From the NCBI GenBank assembly GCA_000182565.2, contig KQ257451.1: 64,000 nucleotides of DNA, one strand, 5' to 3'. Both the position numbers and the translations under genes were made by a program. The notes under the pieces were generated by a model. It did not search any database. It was not told the origin of the DNA and saw only the letters and a list, made by a program, of their open reading frames with translations. The stretch is from Spizellomyces punctatus DAOM BR117. Its lineage: Eukaryota. This document shows positions 1-38,151 of the stretch, in pieces; the first letter of the stretch is position 1, and each line of letters begins with the position of its first letter.

Positions 1-2816
1 TACGATGGAAGCAAAATTATCGTCCAACAGAATCATCGAAGCTGCTTCCTTTGAAACATCCGATCCAGAAATATTCATAGCAATCCCCAGATCAGCCTTC
101 TTCAATGCTGGGGAATCGTTCACACCATCTCCGGTAACGCCAACAATGTGTCCCAGATTTTGGGCACGAGAAACGATTTCCAGCTTATGTTTCGGACTCG
201 TTCGGGCAAAGATAATCTACCAAAATGTTGTGAATGGAAGCCCGTGGTATTGAGCAGGATGAACCAACTTACTTCCTCCTTCATAAGGATTTTGTCCCAA
301 TCACTATCAGTTAAATCATCGATTGTTTCACCATGAATGACGATGGAAGAGTACTCGTGTTCTTGGATAGTCTCAATTGGACGACCAGTCTTTTTGGCCA
401 AAGTTTCTTTCGTATGGCCCAACATTAGGTTAATCTTACGTCCGATAGCCTGGTTTGCATATATGAGAATGATTATAATGTTGCAAAAGATCGTTGGTCT
501 AAAGTGGCAAACGATGTACCTCGGCTGTCAAAGGGTGATCACCAGTAACCATCATGACTTTTATACCGGCTTCTCGGCATCGACCAATGGCTTCGCGAAC
601 ACCATGCTTGGGTGGGTCTTCCAAGCTGATAAGTCCCATAAAGCATAGATCTCGCTGTAAAGAGAATAGCGCATTAACCCTGATGGCAGCTGGTCCAGAG
701 CAAAATTTCGTGATAACACTACCGTTGGATAATTCTCCTTCTCCTTTGAAAACTCTATATTTTCTGGATATTTTTCCGCAGGCATTTGTAATTGTGCAAA
801 AGCCAGCACTCGACGTCCTTTGCCAGCCATCCACTGGTAGGTCTTTAAAAATGCCTGTTCATGCTCAGAGGTCAGCGGCACGTCTTTGCCGTTTACCAGA
901 ATAACAGAGCACATCTTTAAAACTCTTTCGGGGGCTCCCTTTAGGTACAGCGTAAAGACACCGTTTGCATGTTGTTTCCGGTGGATGGTTAGAGCCCATT
1001 TATTGTCAGAATTGAACGGGACTTCAAAAACTTTGGGATACTTTGCGCTCAACTATTTGTCCATCAAATAAGTAGGAGGAAGGTGTTTGAAAAAATCAAA
1101 AGATAGTCCTTACTTGGTCAATGTCGCTCAATTGCTGTGCTGACCAACGCAAAAGACCACTTTCGGTCGCATCCCCATTGATGTTCCTGTGCCCCATGTA
1201 GCAATTAATGTCAAGATTCATGCATAACCAAAATGGCTTAGCATTCTTACCTCTCGGGAACCGGAACGTCGGCTCGGTCAAAGCGCGCCCTGTGGTATGA
1301 ATAGTGAGCAGCCATAGTAACATGCATGAAACAAGAGATTAACGATTCCTACCTAGTGCACATGGCAGAAAGATGTAGCATTTCATTGACCCCACTGATA
1401 GATTGATCAAAAGCGCCTTCTTCGGCCTCCAAATTGGTTGCATGTGGATCCGCTGAAAGGATTCGTAGACTTGTCCAAATGCTCGCGACTGTCATTCGAT
1501 TCTTTGTAAGTGTTCCGGTTTTGTCAGTGGCCAAAAGGGTTATTGCGCCCAAGGTTTCGACTCCACGAAGATCTTTCACCAAGACGTTACGTGCGGCCAT
1601 GCGCTTTGCAGCAATGGTCAATAGCATCGTCATTGTCGCCGGAAGTCCCTGCGGTACCCAAGCGGTGAGAACTCCAATTGCAAAGTTGAAGGCAGTGTTT
1701 ATCTTTTTGTCTTTGATCATGATTACAATAAAGAATATAAGGGCAGAAATGAAAGCTATCGTGGCGATGATGGAGACAAAGTCATCGATTTCGCGTGATA
1801 GCGGGCTGGGCCTCTTCTTTTCATTTTGCGTGAGTCCGGCAATCTGTCCTAGAACCGTTTTATCGCCAATCCGAATAACGACTCCATAACACTCTCCAGA
1901 TATAGCCAGAGTGCCGCTAAATGCCAGATTGGTTGCTTCGAGAGGGTTTTTATGGGTATTGTGAGCAGTACGTTCTTGCGGATCAGATTCGCCAGTTAGG
2001 GACGAATTATCGACCTTGAGTTCGCTCGAGTGGAATACATAAATATCGGCCGGAATTTTATCGCCTTGTCGAACAAAAACAATGTCTCCCACAACGAGTT
2101 CAGCTGCAGGTAGGTCAACCAGAGCACTCCCGCGAATGGCATGTCCTTTCATGGGGACCATGTTCTGCACCCAACATAGTAAGTAGCGAAATACTTTAAT
2201 AACCTATACTGAGGCATGACTGACCATGAAGGAACGAAGAATGGCAGCACTCTTTTGCAGCTGGTAGAACTCAATGAACGCGTTGAGCAAAGCCACGCCC
2301 AACAGAATAGCTCCCACATAAAGCTACCAAAAAAAAAAAAAAAGTATTGAAATTAAGGTTATTTTGGCAGACTGATTTTTAGCTGTAAAAAAAAGATAAC
2401 TTTTTGCGACCCTACATACGTTAAGATAATTCCCGACTGGATCAATCCCGTAGAGGATATAGGTAAAGACACCAGCGATTAGGAGCAGGAGATTAAATAG
2501 ATTGGCAAGACATTCCAAGTAAAGCAATAAAAGAGACTTTTGCTTGGGGGGCGTCAAAATGTTGGGGCCATGTTCAGCCTGTCTTTGGGTCACCTCGGTG
2601 GGTGTGAGACCAGCCGATGCAACCGGTTTGCGAGCATCGAAGGAGGTTTTGTGAAGCTTTTGAATTTCTTCAAACGAAAGAAGATGTTCATTCTATAGAT
2701 GTATATAATCAGAGTCAATTCAACTAGCCCAAGCTACCTTGGGAATTAGAATGACAAACAGAACTTACCAAGTCCACTTTTTTTGTTTTCTTGTCGGTTG
2801 CTCCAGTAGACTCCAT
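1..2816 (-). CDS. P-type ATPase, P2C (Na+/K+- or H+/K+-ATPase alpha-like), multi-exon, 3' end runs off the window
   Basis: Spliced ORFs contain [14 protein letters not shown] (phosphorylation site), KGAPE, MVTGDHP and [19 protein letters not shown]. The N-terminus has the GLT...[10 protein letters not shown] motif typical of P2C. ATG inferred at 2816 ([16 protein letters not shown], then GTAAGT). Confidence 0.93.
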
Positions 2817-3566
2817 CTTTTTTTTCGCGCAAAAAGCACCGAGTGCTTTTGCAACAGGTTAAAGAAAAAGTAGAAACCAAATTGGAGCAAGAAAAACAAA
2901 ACTCATATTCCATTATATCCCTTTTATACCCAACCGCCTAATCGCTGGTAAATTCAATATGTTCCTAGATTGGAGGAAACGCCAAGTCAGGGTTTAAGGG
3001 AAACGCGCCTTGCCAGAGTTGATGATATTTCCATTTGTTTGAACTCCCATCTAGATTTCGATGCACTGGGAGATAACGAGGACCAACCCAGCACAGGTTG
3101 GATATCCCCCATATGGCGTTCAAGATCACGTAAAGGTACTTGTGTTTTTGCCAATGTGTTGACAATCAATATTGATCAATTGCCAAGTCATGGCGGGAGA
3201 AACTTGGTCGCGAGATTACAGGAACTAAGCCTTTTTAATTTCCCATTTGTTCTATTCCCTTGTTGTAGAATTTCTTTTGGAGATTTTCCAGGCATGAACC
3301 AGCCTTTTAGGTGCGCGAACACGCGAACAAACTTGTAAACAAACAAACTCGTTCCAACGACTCTTGTTTCTTTTTCGAATCGCATGGTATCGCCCAATGT
3401 TTATCATTCCTAAAATATACCAAAGAATTAGTTTCGTCCCTCCAAAGTCTTCCTAGTGCATGAATATGTGTTTTATTGGTGGGATTCAACTTTTCCACAA
3501 ATGTTGAGCAAGTTGACCTATACCAGAATGTAAGCGTTTGTACCTCACTGGAATCCACCAAATATT

Positions 3567-4321
3567 TAGTGTAGAGGTGACAGAAACTGGCACTAGCTAC
3601 TACACCAGGGAATAAACCGGCGACAACCGGTTTGGAAAAGCTAACTAAGCTACTACTAGGCAATTATACACGCAATATGTAACGGTTGGTTCTAACCGGA
3701 TAATTGCCCACCACCACACGCGGTCCCTACTAGGCCTTGATCTGGAACTCTTGATGGCATTGAAGCCAGACTCTTGCATCCAGGAGCGAATCGACTGGGC
3801 AGCGTCACAAGCCAGAGGATGTTCAGTGACAAGGCTTGGAGACTACAAAAAATGCATGTCAGAAGATGACCCGATGACAAGAAATAAAATGATGCAAATC
3901 AGTACATACCAACCAAGCTCAACTAATGTGGCAGCATAATAGTAGGTTTTGTTATCAGATCCGATTGGTTGCCGCTGGTTCTGATCACGGTTGCTGTCGG
4001 GCGGTCGAGGTCCTCGGCACCAGAGCAGTATTCTCATGATTGGACTGAGACTTGTTGGGTGGATGCTTTGAGTCAAGGATGGGTAAAGAGGAAAGAGGGA
4101 AGAGGGAGCAGGTCCCCCTTTTATAGACCTTTGGCATGCGCCTCACCGCAGTTTAAAAAAAAAGCTACATTAGCATGCCACACCGCAGTTTGGAGAACAT
4201 TAGCATCCATGCCTCCTCACCGCTTTGAGCAATGATGGGGGTTCTGATTATGCGATATGACTAACCGGATTAATCCGGATAATAATGGGTCCTAGTGCCA
4301 TTTTCAATCACCTCCACACTA
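3567..4321. mobile_element. Non-autonomous TIR element (MITE-like, 755 bp), copy 1
   Basis: 30-bp imperfect TIRs: TAGTGTAGAGGTGACAGAAACTGGCACTAG vs reverse complement of the right end TAGTGTGGAGGTGATTGAAAATGGCACTAG (26/30). Homologous over its full length to 36887-37647, with unrelated flanks. Subterminal AACCGG motifs and a CCGGATTAATCCGG palindrome. Confidence 0.88.
3692..4037 (-). CDS. Putative two-exon 92-aa ORF carried inside the TIR element (copy 1); function unknown
   Basis: Exons 4037-3910 and 3842-3692. Intron has GTATGT...CTGAC...TTTTTTGTAG. TATAAAAG at 4125-4118 is followed by a pyrimidine-rich tract. The same architecture and frame occur in copy 2. Confidence 0.5.
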
Positions 4322-4479
4322 TGGACCCTGTACCACGGCTCCGATAGGCTCCGACTCGGCACGTGACACTTGTCCGAACGCGTTGGACAACACAGAACGA
4401 TGATAGATGTCAGCAGCCTCACTACCCAAGAAATCCCAGTGTACAATCTCGCATCACACCACTACACATCACACACCAC

Positions 4480-5175
4480 ATGCCAAAACAAACAGGAACC
4501 TGGATCCAAACCACCAAAACCCCCAAACCAATCCAAACCCTCTTGGTCCCACCCACATTCTCTTCACGATCACGACATCAATTGAAAATGTCTAGAGTCT
4601 CCAGAGCGGGGATGGAAGGTACACGGGAAAAGAGTCAATGTACGCTCGTGGATATTAAATGGTCGACCGTGGGGGATGGGAAGGTGCTGAGTGGGGAGAG
4701 GAATTCAGTTATTGGGAATGAACATGTATTTCTGGATGGTGCCCGACATTCTTTGGAGGTACAAGAGAAAACAACGACACACCCAACATCTTTTCACCAA
4801 AAAGAATCCAACACACCATTCATTCCACCATCAATCCCCTCACCAACCCCCAAGAAGCCATCCGTATTCCAATTGGACACTCTCCCTCCACCAAACGATA
4901 CATCGACAAAAAGTCTACCTACCATGACCACACACCCATCCCTCCCCACTCTGGAACAAAAGAACCCAACAACACATTCACCATCTTGTCACCAAAAAGA
5001 ATCCGTATCACTCTCAAATACAGCATCAATCCCCTCACCAACCCCCAAAAACCCATCCGCGGATCTCACATTCCCACTAAACAATGTGTTTACGGAGAGT
5101 TTACTTACCATGCCTTCACCCCCGTCCCTCCCATCCACGAACGAGTCCCTACCAGATATGTATATCCCCATCTAG
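4480..5175 (+). CDS. Orphan Pro/Thr/Ser-rich ORF with a two-copy internal repeat (195-nt period); possibly a pseudogene
   Basis: Open frame 4363-5175 with first ATG at 4480. HQKES...SIPSPTPKxPS occurs twice, 195 nt apart. No recognisable domain. Confidence 0.35.
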   Translation: MPKQTGTWIQTTKTPKPIQTLLVPPTFSSRSRHQLKMSRVSRAGMEGTREKSQCTLVDIKWSTVGDGKVLSGERNSVIGNEHVFLDGARHSLEVQEKTTTHPTSFHQKESNTPFIPPSIPSPTPKKPSVFQLDTLPPPNDTSTKSLPTMTTHPSLPTLEQKNPTTHSPSCHQKESVSLSNTASIPSPTPKNPSADLTFPLNNVFTESLLTMPSPPSLPSTNESLPDMYIPI

Positions 5176-5651
5176 TTGATATGATATTAGGGAATGCTGT
5201 GTGTGTGGTTGGATTACACGCGGATTGGTACTCTATCACAAAACAAAACTTTTGCATCTGTATTGACAAAATGCTGGTACGGCCCCTGTATATTATGGTC
5301 GACCCTTCTCTTCTCACGCACTTGCGATTTGATTCTACCGTTAATGGTACATTGTTTGGTAGTAAACGTACATCCAAGACACAGGAATTACTAAAAGAGA
5401 GAGTAGATCCATCGTAGTTACCATAAACAGAGTCATGATAAACACAAAAGTCTTATAAAGGGCATAAAATGGTTTTTTTTTTTTTTGCGTGTGCATATCA
5501 TTCAATTTCCAAACAATACGACAAAAAAATGCTAACTAAAAACTACACAGCAGAGCGAGTAATGTTTTATTTTTTTGAATTTTTTTTTTTTTTCATTATA
5601 TATATACATTCCAATCACAAACCCCGTCTGTTACAACAACACACACACAGA

Positions 5652-8600
5652 TTATTCCATAATCTCTCCATCCTCCAAATTCTCTCCAGCAGGAGCACCC
5701 TCATCAAGCACCCGGGGGGGAAGCTTCATTTTAATTTTAGGTAATTGACCATATTTGGACGGAATCCCCGGAACACCACTCTCCCGTTTTCGTTTTTTCG
5801 GTTTAAAATTATCAACACTATCATCATCATCCGACCACCGTTTACGTTTCTCATCGTCCGAAAAATGAGAGGAAGCTTCAGAGCGTTTTCTTTTGAGTGA
5901 TTCAACAACGGGTTCGGCTTCATCAATGGGTAAAATGGGTACATCGCCTCCAGGTGCCAATTCAGCAATCTTGGAATCAAATACGTGTTTCATTTGAACG
6001 GCGTCATCGTAGACTTCGGAACCATCTACATTGTATTGCATGGCATTGGCAAACATGAGGTGAAAATCGTCAATGAATTGTTGGAGGGATTTGTAGTAGA
6101 CGTGGATGAGACGGTGCCAGATCATGTCGAGTGCGATGGGGCTTCGGATCAGTTTGTAGTAGTCTGGGTATTGGGCTCGGGGTGGGATGGATTGGAATAG
6201 GCCGGACCGTAATCGGCGAGCTCTGTTTCATTCAAAAAAAAATGTGTGAGAAAAGTGGGGCTTCTGTGTAGACTACCAAGACAAAAAGAGGGTGCACTTA
6301 CCCATTCTCATATACAACCTCGGACGCATCTACTGCCTTGTAGCACGCCTCAAAGACCCGTCGAAGGGCTCTACGTTTAGCAGGCGGGAGAGGATCTACT
6401 TCATCCGCATCGACACCCGCAAACTTTTTACGTCGTCGCTTGGCCAAAAGAGCTTCCTCATGTTCTTCTTTCGGTTTCGGTTTTCTGCCGCGTTTTTTAG
6501 GGAGTTGGGGTGTTGTCATATCTTGACTCGGTTCACCGGTGGTCGTCGTACCACCCCCAGTGGTATCTTCGACTTCTTCAACAACAGGTGGTCGCTTCTT
6601 TGGTGGACGACCCCGTTTTCTACCGGGTACTTTGGGCGTTTCAACAACAGGGGGTTTATAAACGACTTGCTCAATTTCTTCCTGTCCGTCTTCATCGTCT
6701 TGATCATCATCATCATCACCCGCATGTCGATTTTTTTTGCGTTCCTCACGTTTAGCGCGCTGTTGCCACCGTTTCTCGATATATCCATCCAAATCCCCGG
6801 AATCCAATCCAGCAAGGAACTGATCTTCATTTAATCCATCATCGTAGCGTACTTCCTTGCGTGCCCGTGCACCGCGTCCCAATTCAATTTCCTGTTCTGT
6901 TGGGAGTTCCTCTTCTTGGACGTAGACGGAGGGGAGTTCACTGTCTTGCATGAGTCGCGGTGGAGGATCACCGCGGTTCCCAGCCGCCCGCCATAAAGAT
7001 AATTCACGCGCATTACGCTCCGCATCCATCTTGTTAAATAACTCCAATTCTTCTTCGTTCCTAGCTATAATCTCATTCAAATCGTTATCATCCAATTGCC
7101 CTTCATTATCTCCTTTATCATCCTCATCTTCCTCAGACCCAAACAAGGACCGTAAAAGCTCATCACGTTCACGATCCGTGGTTTTGTTATCAAATTTTCC
7201 GGCTTGGATGACTTTACCATCGATATCCAGTTTGTATTGTGCACGAGCCAAGATGGTTTCTTCTACTGAACGAGCAGTGATGAGCCGGAGGATACGGACC
7301 TCTTTGGTTTGACCAATACGATGGGCACGATCCTGTGCCTGTAAATCCTGATGCGGATTCCTACAAAACAAAAAATCATTGTCTCAACATAAAGTCCCAA
7401 AAAAAAACAACACAAACAAAATCAAACGCACCAATCCGAATCAAAAATCACAACCGTATCCGCAGTTTGCAAATTCAATCCCAACCCTCCAGCCCTCGTA
7501 CTCAACAAGAAAATAAACGGGGGATTCACAGGGTTATTAAACACCTTCAACATGGTCGTCCGATCCTCTGCTTTGGTATGTCCATCCAACCGCAAATACG
7601 TATGAGCCTTTAAACGTAGATAATCCTCCATAATATCCATGACTTGGGTCATTTGGAAAAACATTAAAACACGATGTCCACTAGTTTTGAATTTCGGGAG
7701 GATGCGATCGAGTAATTCAAATTTTCCGGCGACCCGCCATAAATTGTCGTCGGTCATGCGGGTGGGGTTCATAACGTGTTCGACTTCTTCAAAGACGTAA
7801 GGGTGATTACAAACTTTTCGGAATTGCATAACAAGGTTATTCAATGCCTTTCTCCTAAAATTGCCAAGGTCAACGAACCATAACAAAAAAATCGAAAATT
7901 GAAAAAAAGCAAAAAAAAAACGTACCGGGTAGCACCATCCACCCCAAAACTACTCTTCTTACTCCGAATCTGTTCATACAAACGCAACTGTAACGCCGAC
8001 ATGGGACACTTGACAACCGTCTCAACTTTATCCGGTAACTCAGACTCGACATCCTTTTTCAATCGACGCAACAAAAAGGGTCGAAGGACTTTATGCAATC
8101 CCCGAATAATCAAGAGCGATTCTTCTTCATTGAGTTTCATGTCCGTTTCTTTACCGCCTTCTTTGGAAAATGGGTGGTTGAACCAATCATCAAATGTTTC
8201 CACAGAGTTGAAAATTTTTGGAAGGATAAAGTTGAGGAGGGCCCATAATTCCGGGAGATTATTCTACAAAAAAATGGGCAAGTATATTTTAATATATACA
8301 TGTCTGATCTTACACATGTTGAGTAAACATTACCTGCAACGGCGTCCCCGTCAAAATCAACCGATACCGCGTCGAATAATACTGCATAAGCGTAATCGAC
8401 AATTTGGATTGCGTATTCTTCATGCGATGCCCTTCATCAATAATCATATAGACCCATTTGGTCTTTGCCAGCAAGCTCTTTTCACGAATAATGTATTCGT
8501 AGGTGGTGATGAGTACATTATAGTACCCAGCCTTTATTTCGTTTCGAAGACGAGCACGTTCGGGTGCGGTGCCTTTGAATACAATGCGATTGACAGTAGG

Positions 8601-10625
8601 TGCCCATCGCTCGAATTCAAGGTCCCAGTTGGTAATGGTCGAAAGAGGGACAATCACCAAGAATGGGCCGTTTTGCTTCTTTTTTTCCATAAGGTATGTG
8701 ATGAGTGAGATGGTTTGGATCGTTTTGCCAAGTCCCATTTCGTCAGCTAGGATCCCGTTCAATCGGTTATTGTACAAGGACACCATCCACTGGAGCCCTT
8801 TGATTTGATACTCTTTCAAACGTCCACCAACAAGGATACTGGGTTGCTCCGTGACGTGTTCGGTAATCTTGTGCGCAGTGGCATAGTAATCCGCACCGTC
8901 GTCATCAACGTTTCCGTCGCGTGGTTCATGCTCGGGTACTTCGTACTCAACGACACTGGCTTTTTGATCTTGCATGGCTTTTGTCAGACTGTTTAGATAC
9001 GACTCAGTTTGGTTAAGCAGATGCATGATACGGTTATCCTTGGCCTTGTCGACGAGTTTGAGGTAAGCGGCTTCATCGTTGGCTTTCAAAGCGTTTAGAC
9101 GTTCCTGGGAGATACGCTGCTGCCTCTTTTCTTCCTCCTTTTGAGCAGCAACATGGAAGCGCGCAACAGCTTGACCGAGCCGCGTCGCCTTATTCTGCTG
9201 CTGTTTATGAAACCCAAGCATCTCACGCCCGTGATGGAGGATAGATAAGAGGTAATCAACATGTTTCTGCCGCTCCCGTTTCTCCCGCTCCAAACGTTGG
9301 TTCTTTTCCAATTTTTCAGTCTGTTTAGCTTCCCTCAACGACTGCTTTTTCATTCTTCGGAACGATCCCCGATCAGGAGCGGTAGCAAGCGTCGTTGCTT
9401 TACTCAAACACTGTACAATATCACTTCGAAGCCTCTTTTGCTTATCCAAGAGTTTGAGGGATTTAAGCTCAATCAACGCTTTGAGTTTCGCCCCCGTATC
9501 ATTGGATAAATTACTAGGAAGGTTCTCTAGCTCGCTAATACGGTACTGAATACGCGCTTGAATCTGTTTTTCTCGCTCTTGCATCAAGGCATAGGCATCA
9601 ATTCCACTTGGTGTTCCACTGGGTATAACGACCCGCTGCTGGAGGTCCGCCACTGAAATCTTTTTAGGGAGCAATGAATAAGGGTTGGAGAGCGGTCCCA
9701 TGTCAAAGCGGGCCGTTGTGGCTTTGAGGACGGGTGAAGGGTCTTGATTTGGTTTAGGTGGCGTAGGATGCTGAAAGACAGATTCAACAATTTTCTGCGG
9801 GATAGGATGCGTCTCGGATTCGTTTGGCGTCTGCGACTGTCGTAATTGGTCAGCATCAAACACGCGTTGACGTAAATGCTCAGGAACGGGTTTGTTGCCA
9901 GATATGAGTTTGAAAACGTAGATTTGACATCGGAGGGCCGTTAATTGTTCTGGGGTGAAGGGTCCGACTCCTGCTGCTGTTCCAGATGGTTGCGAAGTCG
10001 GTGGTGGTGGTGGTATACCATCTTTTGGTTGCGAATGTTGCTGCGGATGCACTGCTTGTACCTGTCCAACCGGTACCTGTCCAGAGGTCAACTGTCCAGC
10101 GGGCAAGTGCCCAACGGGTACCTGTCCAACAGCTCCCTGTCCAACCGGTCCCTGCCCAGCGGATACCTGCCCACCAGGTAGCCCAGAACCCACAATCTGC
10201 CCATGCCCCCACTGCGCTCCAGGCCCTCGCTGCTGCTGCTGCTGCCCAACAACACCATGTTGCTGAACTTGCTGAACTTGCTGCTGTTGTTGCTGTTGCT
10301 GTTGCTGCTGAGCCAAATTCTTCCCCAAAGAACTATACTGCCTCAAAATCGCAATCTTTTGCGCAAACTCTGGATCATTCGCCTCTGTCGACCCCTTTTC
10401 CTTCAACGCCTGAGCACTCTACAAAAAAAAAACCATCAACCAACGATCCCCTTTTCAAACATACTTCATTATACGTACTGCAATAATCCCCTTCAACTGT
10501 TCCTGCGTTAAAGCCTGCATATGCTGCGGAATAGGTCTCACATTTCTTTGTATAGGTCTTTGTTGCGGGTACGTATTCGCCTGTTGCTGTTGAGGCGGGG
10601 GGTAGACTTGTCCATTCGTGTACAT
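5652..10625 (-). CDS. SNF2: SWI/SNF or RSC catalytic ATPase (SNF2/STH1/Snf21 type) with QLQ, HSA, SNF2 ATPase, SnAC, AT-hook and bromodomain
   Basis: QLQ ([13 protein letters not shown]), [63 protein letters not shown], bromodomain ([12 protein letters not shown]). ATG inferred at 10625 ([11 protein letters not shown]). Confidence 0.96.
10040..10310 (-). repeat. Coding low-complexity tract in SNF2: polyQ plus about eight GQxxx pentapeptide (15-nt) repeats
   Basis: [17 protein letters not shown] and [40 protein letters not shown] read directly from ORF 8310-10406. Confidence 0.85.
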
Positions 10626-36669: not shown

Positions 36670-36886
36670 CGTTTTGGGGTAGGCGTAAGCGCGGAGTTTT
36701 GCCGTTATATTGTACAGTATTACTTGCATGTCACTTATTTTGAAGGTTCTAGCCAAATTACACAGACATTTTCTGTCCACCTGCACGAATGCTCTCATGA
36801 ATGTCTGGGGACATGCTGCAATATCACTTTGAACCTAGAGAACATTTTCACGAAGCCTTGGATTTGGAGATCTGATATCGTGTTTA

Positions 36887-37647
36887 TAGTGTAGAGGTGA
36901 CAGAAACTGGCACTAGCTACTACACCAGGGAATAAACCGGCGACAACCGGTTCGGAAAAGCTAACTAAGCTACTACTAGGCAATTATACATGCAATATGT
37001 AACGGTTGGTTCTAACTGGATAATTGCCCACCACCACACACGGTCCCTACTAGGCCTTGATCTGGAACTCTTGATGGCATTGAAGCCAGACTCTTGCATC
37101 CAGGAGCAAATTGACTGGGCAGCGTCACAAGCCAGAGGATGTTCAGTGACAAGGCTTGGAGACTAAAAAAAACTGCATGTCAGCAAGATGAATGACAGAA
37201 TGAAAAGAAAAATGCCATTGGTACATACCAACCAAGCTCAACAAATGTAGCAGTATAATAGCAGCTTTGTTGGTTCCGAGTGGTTGCTGCTGGTTCCAGT
37301 TGGTTGTAGTCAGGAGGGCGAGTTCCTCGGCACCACCACATCTGCATTCTCATGATTGACCAAGTCGTGATGAGAGTTGCAATGTGGGTCGCGATGAGCG
37401 TTGCGCAGATGGTTTGAGAGTCAGGGAACTGGTGAGGAAGGGGAGAGAGAGCAAAGGCTCCCCTTTTATAGACCTTTGGCAGGCGCCTCACCGCAGTTTT
37501 CTTAAAAAAAAAACATTACATGCATGCCACACCGCTGCATGCCACACCAATCTGAGCGATAGAGGGGGTTCTGATATGCGATATGATTAACCGGATTAAT
37601 CCGGATAATAATGGGTCCTAGTGCCATTTTCAATCACCTCCACACTA
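36887..37647. mobile_element. Non-autonomous TIR element (MITE-like, 761 bp), copy 2
   Basis: Same TIRs and orientation as 3567-4321. First 279 bp differ at 6 positions, the middle is clearly diverged, and the last ~85 bp are near-identical. Confidence 0.88.
37012..37353 (-). CDS. Putative two-exon 91-aa ORF carried inside the TIR element (copy 2)
   Basis: Exons 37353-37229 and 37162-37012. Intron has GTATGT...CTGAC...TTTTTTTTAG. TATAAAAG at 37470-37463. Confidence 0.5.
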
Positions 37648-38151
37648 TGTCTTTTGGTGTTCGCCTCGCTAGTCGTTGGCTGGGAAGAAACTGAATTCAT
37701 TTTTCGATGGAATATATGCCATCAACACCTCAATACACCAGAAAAGAGGATAAAACGGGTAAGATAGAGGGAAATCTGGAGCGGGCGACTACTAGAGTAC
37801 AGATAACAGGACCAACGAACTCTCCCAGAACTGGTAGATGTCATTATTCTTCCTTTTCTACTAGTGCGCCAGGGAGGAAACCGACAAAAATAATGTGCCT
37901 TGTGTGATTGGGAACGGCCGCCTGTGCATATTCTTGAGAAAGGAGGCCTTCCACCTATTGGAGATACGAAAGCTGTCACCATACACAGACGTATTGTCTC
38001 GCACCTCACTTAAACCAGTCCGATCTATCCTGAAGGATTGGTCGTCCGCGTAATTTGTGGCTTGGGGCAGGCTTAGAGTGGCTGATGCCCGTTTTCGGAC
38101 GACCTGCTGCGGGATACTGAATTGAATTGCAATTTATCACACCATTCAGTT

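Follow-up and report, generated by a model that had tools for sequence, protein, structure and literature searches.

Why should a short transposable element that encodes neither a transposase nor a nuclease retain a promoter and a spliced gene of its own? The question is raised by a stretch of 64,000 nucleotides (nt) of contig KQ257451.1 from the soil chytrid Spizellomyces punctatus DAOM BR117 (assembly GCA_000182565.2), hereafter called the window. It holds two copies of such an element: copy A, 755 bp at 3567-4321, and copy B, 761 bp at 36887-37647, both read on the minus strand. A preliminary description, made from the letters alone, had presented them as a transposase-less element with terminal inverted repeats (TIRs) that carries a mobile mini-gene for a small peptide. 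We propose that both copies are ghost Spu-1 elements, and that the mini-gene is first of all the RNA polymerase II (Pol II) transcription unit of the omegaRNA, the guide RNA of Fanzor nucleases, which would lie in its 3′ untranslated region (UTR). We hold this reading to be fairly probable.

Element ends and the right-end scaffold

Both copies start and finish with TA and are bounded by inverted repeats (IRs) of 30 nt. IR detection and an arm search place the left-end repeat of copy A, which begins with TA, at 4292-4321 (minus strand) and its right-end repeat at 3567-3596 (plus strand). These two arms are 87% complementary and enclose 695 nt. The repeats of copy B (left 37618-37647, right 36887-36916) enclose 701 nt, and the IRs are identical between the copies. 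The 30-nt left arm is present twice in the window (4292-4321 and 37618-37647) with no mismatches where no occurrence is expected, and a 14-nt core of the repeat has four matches compared to 0.03 expected. A relaxed scan of the 64 kb, allowing up to 10 mismatches in 30, gave no additional convincing element end and no Fanzor locus in the window.

The dinucleotide outside the left IR is CA in both copies (4322-4323, minus strand, in A; 37648-37649 in B), and together with the first TA of the repeat it spells CATA, the published target-adjacent motif (TAM) of the Fanzor protein SpuFz1. Outside the right IRs the dinucleotides are TT and TA. Between the IRs there is no Fanzor open reading frame (ORF), the longest frames being about 100 amino acids (aa). 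With a TA duplication, TIRs, no transposase and a length below 1 kb, both copies have the hallmarks of miniature inverted-repeat transposable elements (MITEs), and on this point the preliminary description holds.

For S. punctatus, the available text of Saito et al. (Nature 2023, PMC10432273) counts 42 SpuFz1 loci and 134 'ghost Spu-1' loci that have IRs and no Fanzor ORF. According to that text, the ghosts have 30-nt IRs with a conserved CA before the 5′ IR, the TAM is CATA, and ghost and Fanzor-locus IRs differ at seven positions. No transposase was found within the Spu-1 IRs, the transposase partner being given as unknown. A 75-nt ghost region that includes the 3′ IR resembles the Fanzor omegaRNA scaffold and has a stem 2 with a 3-nt bulge; the omegaRNA guide extends 14-15 nt beyond the right end; and SpuFz1 was guided by ghost omegaRNAs in human cells.

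We find a matching predicted structure at the right end of both copies (3567-3641 in A and 36887-36961 in B, minus strand, each containing the right IR). In four of four folds these final 75 nt begin with eight unpaired nucleotides and an 8-bp stem-loop; exactly six unpaired nucleotides (29-34) come next, and then a long stem 2 interrupted by a 3-nt bulge. The canonical scaffold is described in the text of PMC10432273 with a '6-nt linker, A29 to C34' and a stem 2 from U35. Fold stability is far beyond that of shuffled sequences (z -4.21 for A and -3.8 for B; 0 of 200 shuffles as stable).

At the level of single nucleotides, 15 of the 18 canonical scaffold positions named in that text are matched, compared to about 4.5 by chance. 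Of the nine from A29 onwards, seven agree in register. The exceptions are C40 and G70, at the boundaries of the distal stem 2, a part that differs in ghosts according to the same text. Among the first nine, eight match with a shift of one nucleotide, the shift having been picked post hoc. A comparison with Rfam returned two rows below the cut-off (CRISPR-DR61, 22.6 against 38 bits, and ES036, 19.5 against 37.6 bits), both of which we take as chance. By analogy with the published 14-15-nt extension, the putative guides are the right flanks of the elements, a 15-nt stretch at 3552-3566 for copy A and 36872-36886 for copy B (minus strand).

The family also appears to be large. In X1, one of four public runs described below, 265 contig pieces fall on the element, and their summed depth is 175-380 compared to 3.7 on the unique flank. 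Summed contig depth is not a copy number, and the value fits a family about as large as the published ghost set. The present elements and the ghosts are alike in organism, 30-nt IRs, CA, absence of a Fanzor ORF, high copy number and 75-nt scaffold. We see no difference at the level of the element, but the available text of PMC10432273 gives only a conserved region of about 550 nt and no promoter, intron or ORF.

The 134 published loci probably include both copies. As the family, its omegaRNA and the use of this RNA by SpuFz1 are known from print, the element itself is no discovery. The preliminary description had missed that the element belongs to a published family and that its last 75 nt are a predicted omegaRNA scaffold; an ordinary MITE with a novel cargo is therefore not what we have here.

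The mini-gene and its transcripts

What is added here is the content of the element upstream of the scaffold. On the minus strand of copy A, TATAAAAG at 4125-4118 is followed by a CT-rich leader without ATG and then by an ATG at 4037-4035. The coding part of exon 1 (3910-4037) has 42 codons plus 2 nt and is covered by RNA contigs. A spliceosomal intron of 67 nt (3909-3843) separates it from the coding part of exon 2 (3692-3842), which contributes 1 nt, 49 codons and a stop, TAG at 3694-3692. Copy B has the same layout on the same strand: TATAAAAG at 37470-37463, an ATG at 37353-37351, exon 1 at 37229-37353, an intron of 66 nt at 37163-37228 and exon 2 at 37012-37162, ending in a stop at 37014-37012.

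Before the donor, coding exon 1 measures 128 nt in A and 125 nt in B. Both introns have a GTATGT donor, a CTGAC branch point, a T-tract and a TAG acceptor. The computed spliced ORFs are 92 aa (A) and 91 aa (B) with one terminal stop each. The TATA region, ATG, intron and two-exon ORFs all lie where the preliminary description had placed them. The mini-gene is located upstream of the scaffold on the same strand, its stop codon 50 nt before it. Left end, gene, omegaRNA and right end follow one another in the orientation of a Fanzor locus.

To follow transcription we used contigs of four public runs (X1, X12, X14 and X17) aligned to positions 2200-5200 of the window. The small shares of matching words in the other runs from X13 to X20 were not used. 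All of these data are short contigs that carry no strand, start, end or level. In X14, an RNA-seq run, a 232-nt contig joins 3842 to 3910 and skips exactly the 67 nt of the intron, with ends that read CT..AC on the plus strand and hence GT..AG on the minus strand. Its exon-1 side spans 50 letters with no difference and its exon-2 side 182 letters with one. Another run of that study, X12, has contigs with loose ends at 3843 and 3910 whose letters spell the opposite exon. X17, from another study and RNA by guess only, has the same joint between 3842 and 3910, with 11 realigned letters. The junction that had been predicted from the letters is therefore present, to the nucleotide, in three runs. 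Contigs that retain the intron are present as well (X1 record 2 and X12 record 11).

TATA-like strings and short ORFs are common, and one could suppose that the gene-like signals are an accident in a non-coding MITE. The exact predicted junction in RNA contigs of three runs already contradicts chance, and the signals are kept between copies that have otherwise diverged; we regard an accident as extremely improbable.

Further downstream, RNA contigs tile 3567-3843, from the acceptor side of the intron to the right end, with overlaps of at least 30 nt. At the other side, no contig of X14 or X17 reaches upstream of 4119 and the TATA box (depth 0). The stretches 2200-3512 and 4826-5200 have zero cover in all four runs and are uninformative. 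We also observed in X17 an 88-nt contig (record 22) that consists of the exact 75-nt scaffold and 13 letters of a different flank. Its size matches the published omegaRNA species of 88-90 nt, and the ends of such a contig may be graph branch points. The tiling, the stop of cover at the TATA side and the 88-nt contig fit with an omegaRNA precursor, and none of them proves one continuous molecule.

Other contigs of the RNA libraries touch the scaffold in a different way. X14 record 17 and loose ends of X12 and X17 (at 3601, 3641, 3647 and 3648) have only about 47 nt, 3601-3647, in common with the element and are unlike it on both sides. This shared segment comprises stem-loop 1 and the linker, and the contigs may come from Fanzor loci or from another family with a related omegaRNA.

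Guide RNA precursor, microprotein or remnant

In ghosts the omegaRNA cannot travel on the mRNA of a nuclease gene, since they lack one, and a promoter of their own would therefore be needed. Since the mini-gene in addition occupies the position of the Fanzor ORF, we read its TATA box, leader, intron and ORF as a transcription unit for the omegaRNA.

In this proposal, transcription by Pol II would start some 30 nt downstream of the conserved internal TATA promoter. The resulting RNA would be spliced at 3910/3842 and may extend past exon 2 to include the 75-nt scaffold and 14-15 nt of the flank. Its 3′ part would be bound by Fanzor from other loci and trimmed to the omegaRNA. With the element's own right flank as guide, a target with CA and TA (CATA) ahead of it would be the empty site of the element, and its cleavage would favour restoration of the element by copying. 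The short ORF would be incidental, or retained for the stability or translation of the spliced RNA.

Meers and colleagues are said to have proposed in 2023 that cleavage of the empty site by TnpB favours copying back of the element. Elsewhere in the window, we found no site that combines CATA and guide with up to four mismatches. Empty-site cleavage and copying back are discussed for Fanzor in the available text of Saito et al. (2023, PMC10432273).

The comparison of the two copies bears on this proposal, because their conservation is a mosaic. Near-identical blocks comprise the left 85 nt or so, the promoter core with TATAAAAG (4110-4149, minus strand; 37 of 40 columns identical), the surroundings of the ATG, the donor together with the final 30 nt of exon 1 (37 of 40), and the whole stretch that begins at the branch point and reaches the right end. 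In this stretch (3862-3567) the copies show 8 differences over 296 nt, six CpG transitions and two differences in the T-tract. Elsewhere they have diverged, with many indels and 11-29 identical columns in each 40: this applies to the upstream region, the leader, the greater part of exon 1 and the interior of the intron. Outside the near-identical blocks, identity is roughly 50-70%. For example, the intron interior has 15 identical columns of 40, with donor, branch point and acceptor kept.

Such a mosaic is too uneven to have been produced by even neutral decay. A promoter core and splice signals that are kept around a freely changing intron interior have, judged from the two sequences, the look of selection for expression and splicing. 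Exchange between copies may be an alternative cause of the mosaic.

Evidence that shuffling between copies does occur comes from annotated paralogues. The unspliced exon-1 ORF matches both of two candidates, SPPG_09412 and SPPG_08830 (80% and 75% identity), 'uncharacterized' proteins of S. punctatus DAOM BR117, and a third paralogue, SPPG_09407, falls in the same cluster. Because the same exon-1/exon-2 junction is found in all three, we take them to be gene models on other copies of the element. In SPPG_09407 a leader like that of B precedes an exon 1 like that of A, from which ghost copies would seem to be mosaics. In this model (P0130), residues 1-36 result from a start at an ATG in the promoter core and a translation across the TATA box; this start is most likely an annotation artefact.

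The six substitutions that separate 3567-3862 from 36887-37182 all turn a CpG into TpG or CpA. At position 3633, copy A disagrees with all contigs aligned there (four runs). Both observations suggest that ghost repeats decay under cytosine methylation.

Several points weigh against an omegaRNA transcription unit in ghost elements. The 695 and 701 nt between the IRs exceed the 'around 550 nt' given for the conserved region in the available text of PMC10432273, and our assignment to the ghosts follows the published description and not an alignment to published locus sequences; short strings of the scaffold did not turn up in the text of two papers. In the same text, native small-RNA evidence concerns four Fanzor loci, and expression of ghost omegaRNAs in the fungus is not stated. 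X12 has cover on the left arm as well, beyond the TATA box, at a depth of 3-10, possibly from read-through transcripts or DNA in the library, and in the short contigs no single molecule spans the TATA region through to the right end. Folding of the stretch of 291 nt that reaches from exon 2 to the guide gave nothing out of the ordinary as a whole (z -1.06), and predicted structure therefore does not account for the strong conservation of exon 2.

The two remaining points concern the reading frame, for a pure role as RNA precursor does not predict coding constraint. A first-ATG ORF at least as long as the observed one arises in only 58 (A) and 90 (B) of 5000 mononucleotide shuffles of the spliced transcript, so that the ORFs are longer than in 98-99% of shuffles; the start site of the transcript was guessed, and the two tests are not independent as A and B share exon 2. 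Among 14 exon-1 variants, counted at 10% or more of the depth in run contigs, seven are synonymous compared to 3.7 expected (P 0.05), while the other two frames give 2 of 14 and 4 of 14; the variants are linked on contigs, and three more were not listed.

These figures speak for a true protein-coding cargo, a selected microprotein of about 90 aa that would act, for example, with or against Fanzor or an unknown transposase, the omegaRNA merely lying downstream. The intact first-ATG ORF spans the intron in both copies, the spliced RNA exists, and the sequence around the ATG forms an island of conservation. Comparing the two diverged subfamilies, the N-terminal block W-C-R-G-x-R-P-P-D has been preserved, its codons showing three synonymous changes and a single replacement. 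Its R-P-P codons differ only synonymously between A and B, as had been reported, and across copies and contigs the R and the first P codon each occur with three different third-position letters.

Other observations weigh against a peptide. The indels of exon 1 (+3, -2 and -4) had been called compensating, and indeed the phase at the donor is kept, but A and B use different frames between -2 and -4 in mid exon 1, so this part of the peptide is not conserved. One expressed contig (13.8 of 34 depth, X12) has a 1-nt deletion at 3947. Exon 2 is conserved no better than the non-coding 3′ part, with 4 differences in 148 nt compared to 2 in 128 nt, and three of its four differences are non-synonymous and one synonymous. 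All three annotated paralogues depart from the exon-2 frame of A and B, at three different points. Codon usage lies between that of real genes and wrong frames: the scores of -0.05 to 0.05 per codon are at or below the 5th percentile of the real genes of the window (-0.024) and around the top 5% of wrong frames.

Searches gave no relative outside the element family. An exhaustive search of representative proteins with exon 2 gave five rows at E of 0.001 or less, the sole family member being SPPG_09412. We took the other four (proteins of 278-2193 aa, 36-45% identity over 22-35 residues, three of them in 3-8 stretches) as low-complexity chance matches. A protein search with the exon-1 ORF of copy B gave no candidate, and Pfam gave no family above its curated cut-offs, the best being NinE at 15.5 bits compared to a cut-off of 25. 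In metagenomes, exon-2 peptide patterns hit 593 stretches, of which tblastn confirmed none, and a scan for the IR pattern hit 0 stretches. The AlphaFold model of SPPG_09407 (144 aa, made without an alignment) has a mean predicted local distance difference test (pLDDT) score of 39.5, which is uninformative, and no recognisable fold.

Taken on its own as the purpose of the mini-gene, a selected microprotein is in our view unlikely. The mini-gene of the preliminary description is real as a spliced RNA, and the peptide is a possible selected product.

The frame shifts in individual copies and the strong divergence of exon 1 and leader would also suit a decaying remnant. Promoter, intron and ORF would then descend from an ancestral gene that was carried or captured, transcription and splicing would persist by inertia and serve no purpose today, and the omegaRNA would come from read-through or other transcripts. 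The X12 cover upstream of the TATA box agrees with this, and the combination of leader and exon 1 in SPPG_09407 points to shuffling between copies rather than selection. Decay, however, should be even, and yet the TATA core, donor, branch point and acceptor are kept amid stretches with 15-29 identical columns of 40.

A second point against a remnant comes from PDB. Searches at E up to 10 with the exon-1 ORF, an alternative exon-2 frame and the 144-aa paralogue gave 0, 1 and 2 rows, all at chance level with E of 0.13 or more, and thus no match to solved transposase or nuclease chains, the presence of the SpuFz1 chain in the PDB copy being unconfirmed. By this search the exons correspond to no known transposase or nuclease, and the transposase origin that the preliminary description had named as a refutation did not turn up. 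We rate a remnant as rather unlikely.

The omegaRNA transcription unit and a peptide are compatible with each other, and a function of its own is possible for the peptide. The spliced mRNA of the ghosts could have two jobs, its 3′ UTR being the omegaRNA precursor and its peptide of about 90 aa with the W-C-R-G-x-R-P-P-D block modulating Fanzor or an unknown transposase. We consider this combination quite doubtful. If true, it would make the peptide a transposon-borne accessory or anti-nuclease microprotein.

Surroundings, relatives and meaning

The element has two further features. A 15-nt direct repeat occurs twice upstream of the TATA box (4140-4191, minus strand, and similarly at 37485-37548 in copy B), and its units are candidate upstream promoter elements. 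A perfect 14-bp palindrome at 4265-4278, in the conserved left subterminal arm, is a candidate motif; a related TTATCCGG motif appears again at the end of exon 2.

A P-type cation ATPase gene (ORFs 2324-2692 and 1349-2203, minus strand) has its first long exon about 870 nt downstream of copy A and runs in the same orientation, so that transcripts leaving the element would head towards this gene. Among the 120 matches listed for the ATPase, none of which names S. punctatus, the masked row at 100% is the window's own protein, and the next-closest proteins are from Geranomyces (71%) and Thoreauomyces (69%), both Spizellomycetales. On the other side, a proline/threonine/serine-rich open frame (4348-5175, plus strand) starts beside the left end of copy A and contains a 107-nt direct repeat (4758-4864 and 4953-5059; 79% identical, spacing 195). 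Further away, seven overlapping 43-nt copies spaced 15 nt apart at 10046-10178 amount to a 15-nt tandem repeat, which sits in a long minus-strand open frame (8310-10418) of an SNF2-type gene.

How does the element compare with known systems? Stowaway-like and Tc1-mariner MITEs of fungi and plants are short, have a TA duplication and TIRs, lack a transposase and occur in many copies; they are described as non-coding and without a guide RNA. The present element differs from them by its internal promoter, its spliced transcript and its predicted omegaRNA scaffold.

Bacterial non-autonomous derivatives of IS200/IS605 keep their ends and the omegaRNA without tnpA or tnpB, are served by nuclease and transposase in trans, and have a right-end guide that reads into the flank. 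These derivatives are prokaryotic and have no TIR, target-site duplication, Pol II promoter or intron.

The same genome also has an autonomous-looking relative. This SPu-1/SpuFz1 locus, as far as it is described in the available parts of PMC3627910 and PMC10432273, shares with the ghosts the TA flanks, TIRs of about 30 nt, the right-end omegaRNA, the TAM CATA and the orientation of gene and omegaRNA. SPu-1 itself is about 2.1 kb long with TA duplications (Bao and Jurka 2013, PMC3627910, available text); it has a single intron-less ORF of 633-638 aa (Fanzor1), in contrast to the spliced 91-92-aa ORF of the ghost elements. The latter is without detectable similarity to the Fanzor1 ORF.

In the literature searched, with the three gene ids included and Saito et al. 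available in part, we found no mention of a promoter, a spliced intron or an ORF inside ghosts; the supplements of that paper may show part of this. The internal promoter, intron and ORF are a modest, useful addition to Fanzor biology. If the mini-gene is indeed the transcription unit of the ghost omegaRNA, it would show a way in which a stand-alone eukaryotic guide RNA can be transcribed: the unit would resemble a Pol II gene and hold the guide in its 3′ UTR. This would explain why a promoter is under selection in an element that encodes no enzyme. Expression of omegaRNAs in fungi could also draw on its natural promoter and leader, and the small ORF would be a candidate for a role in the Fanzor system.

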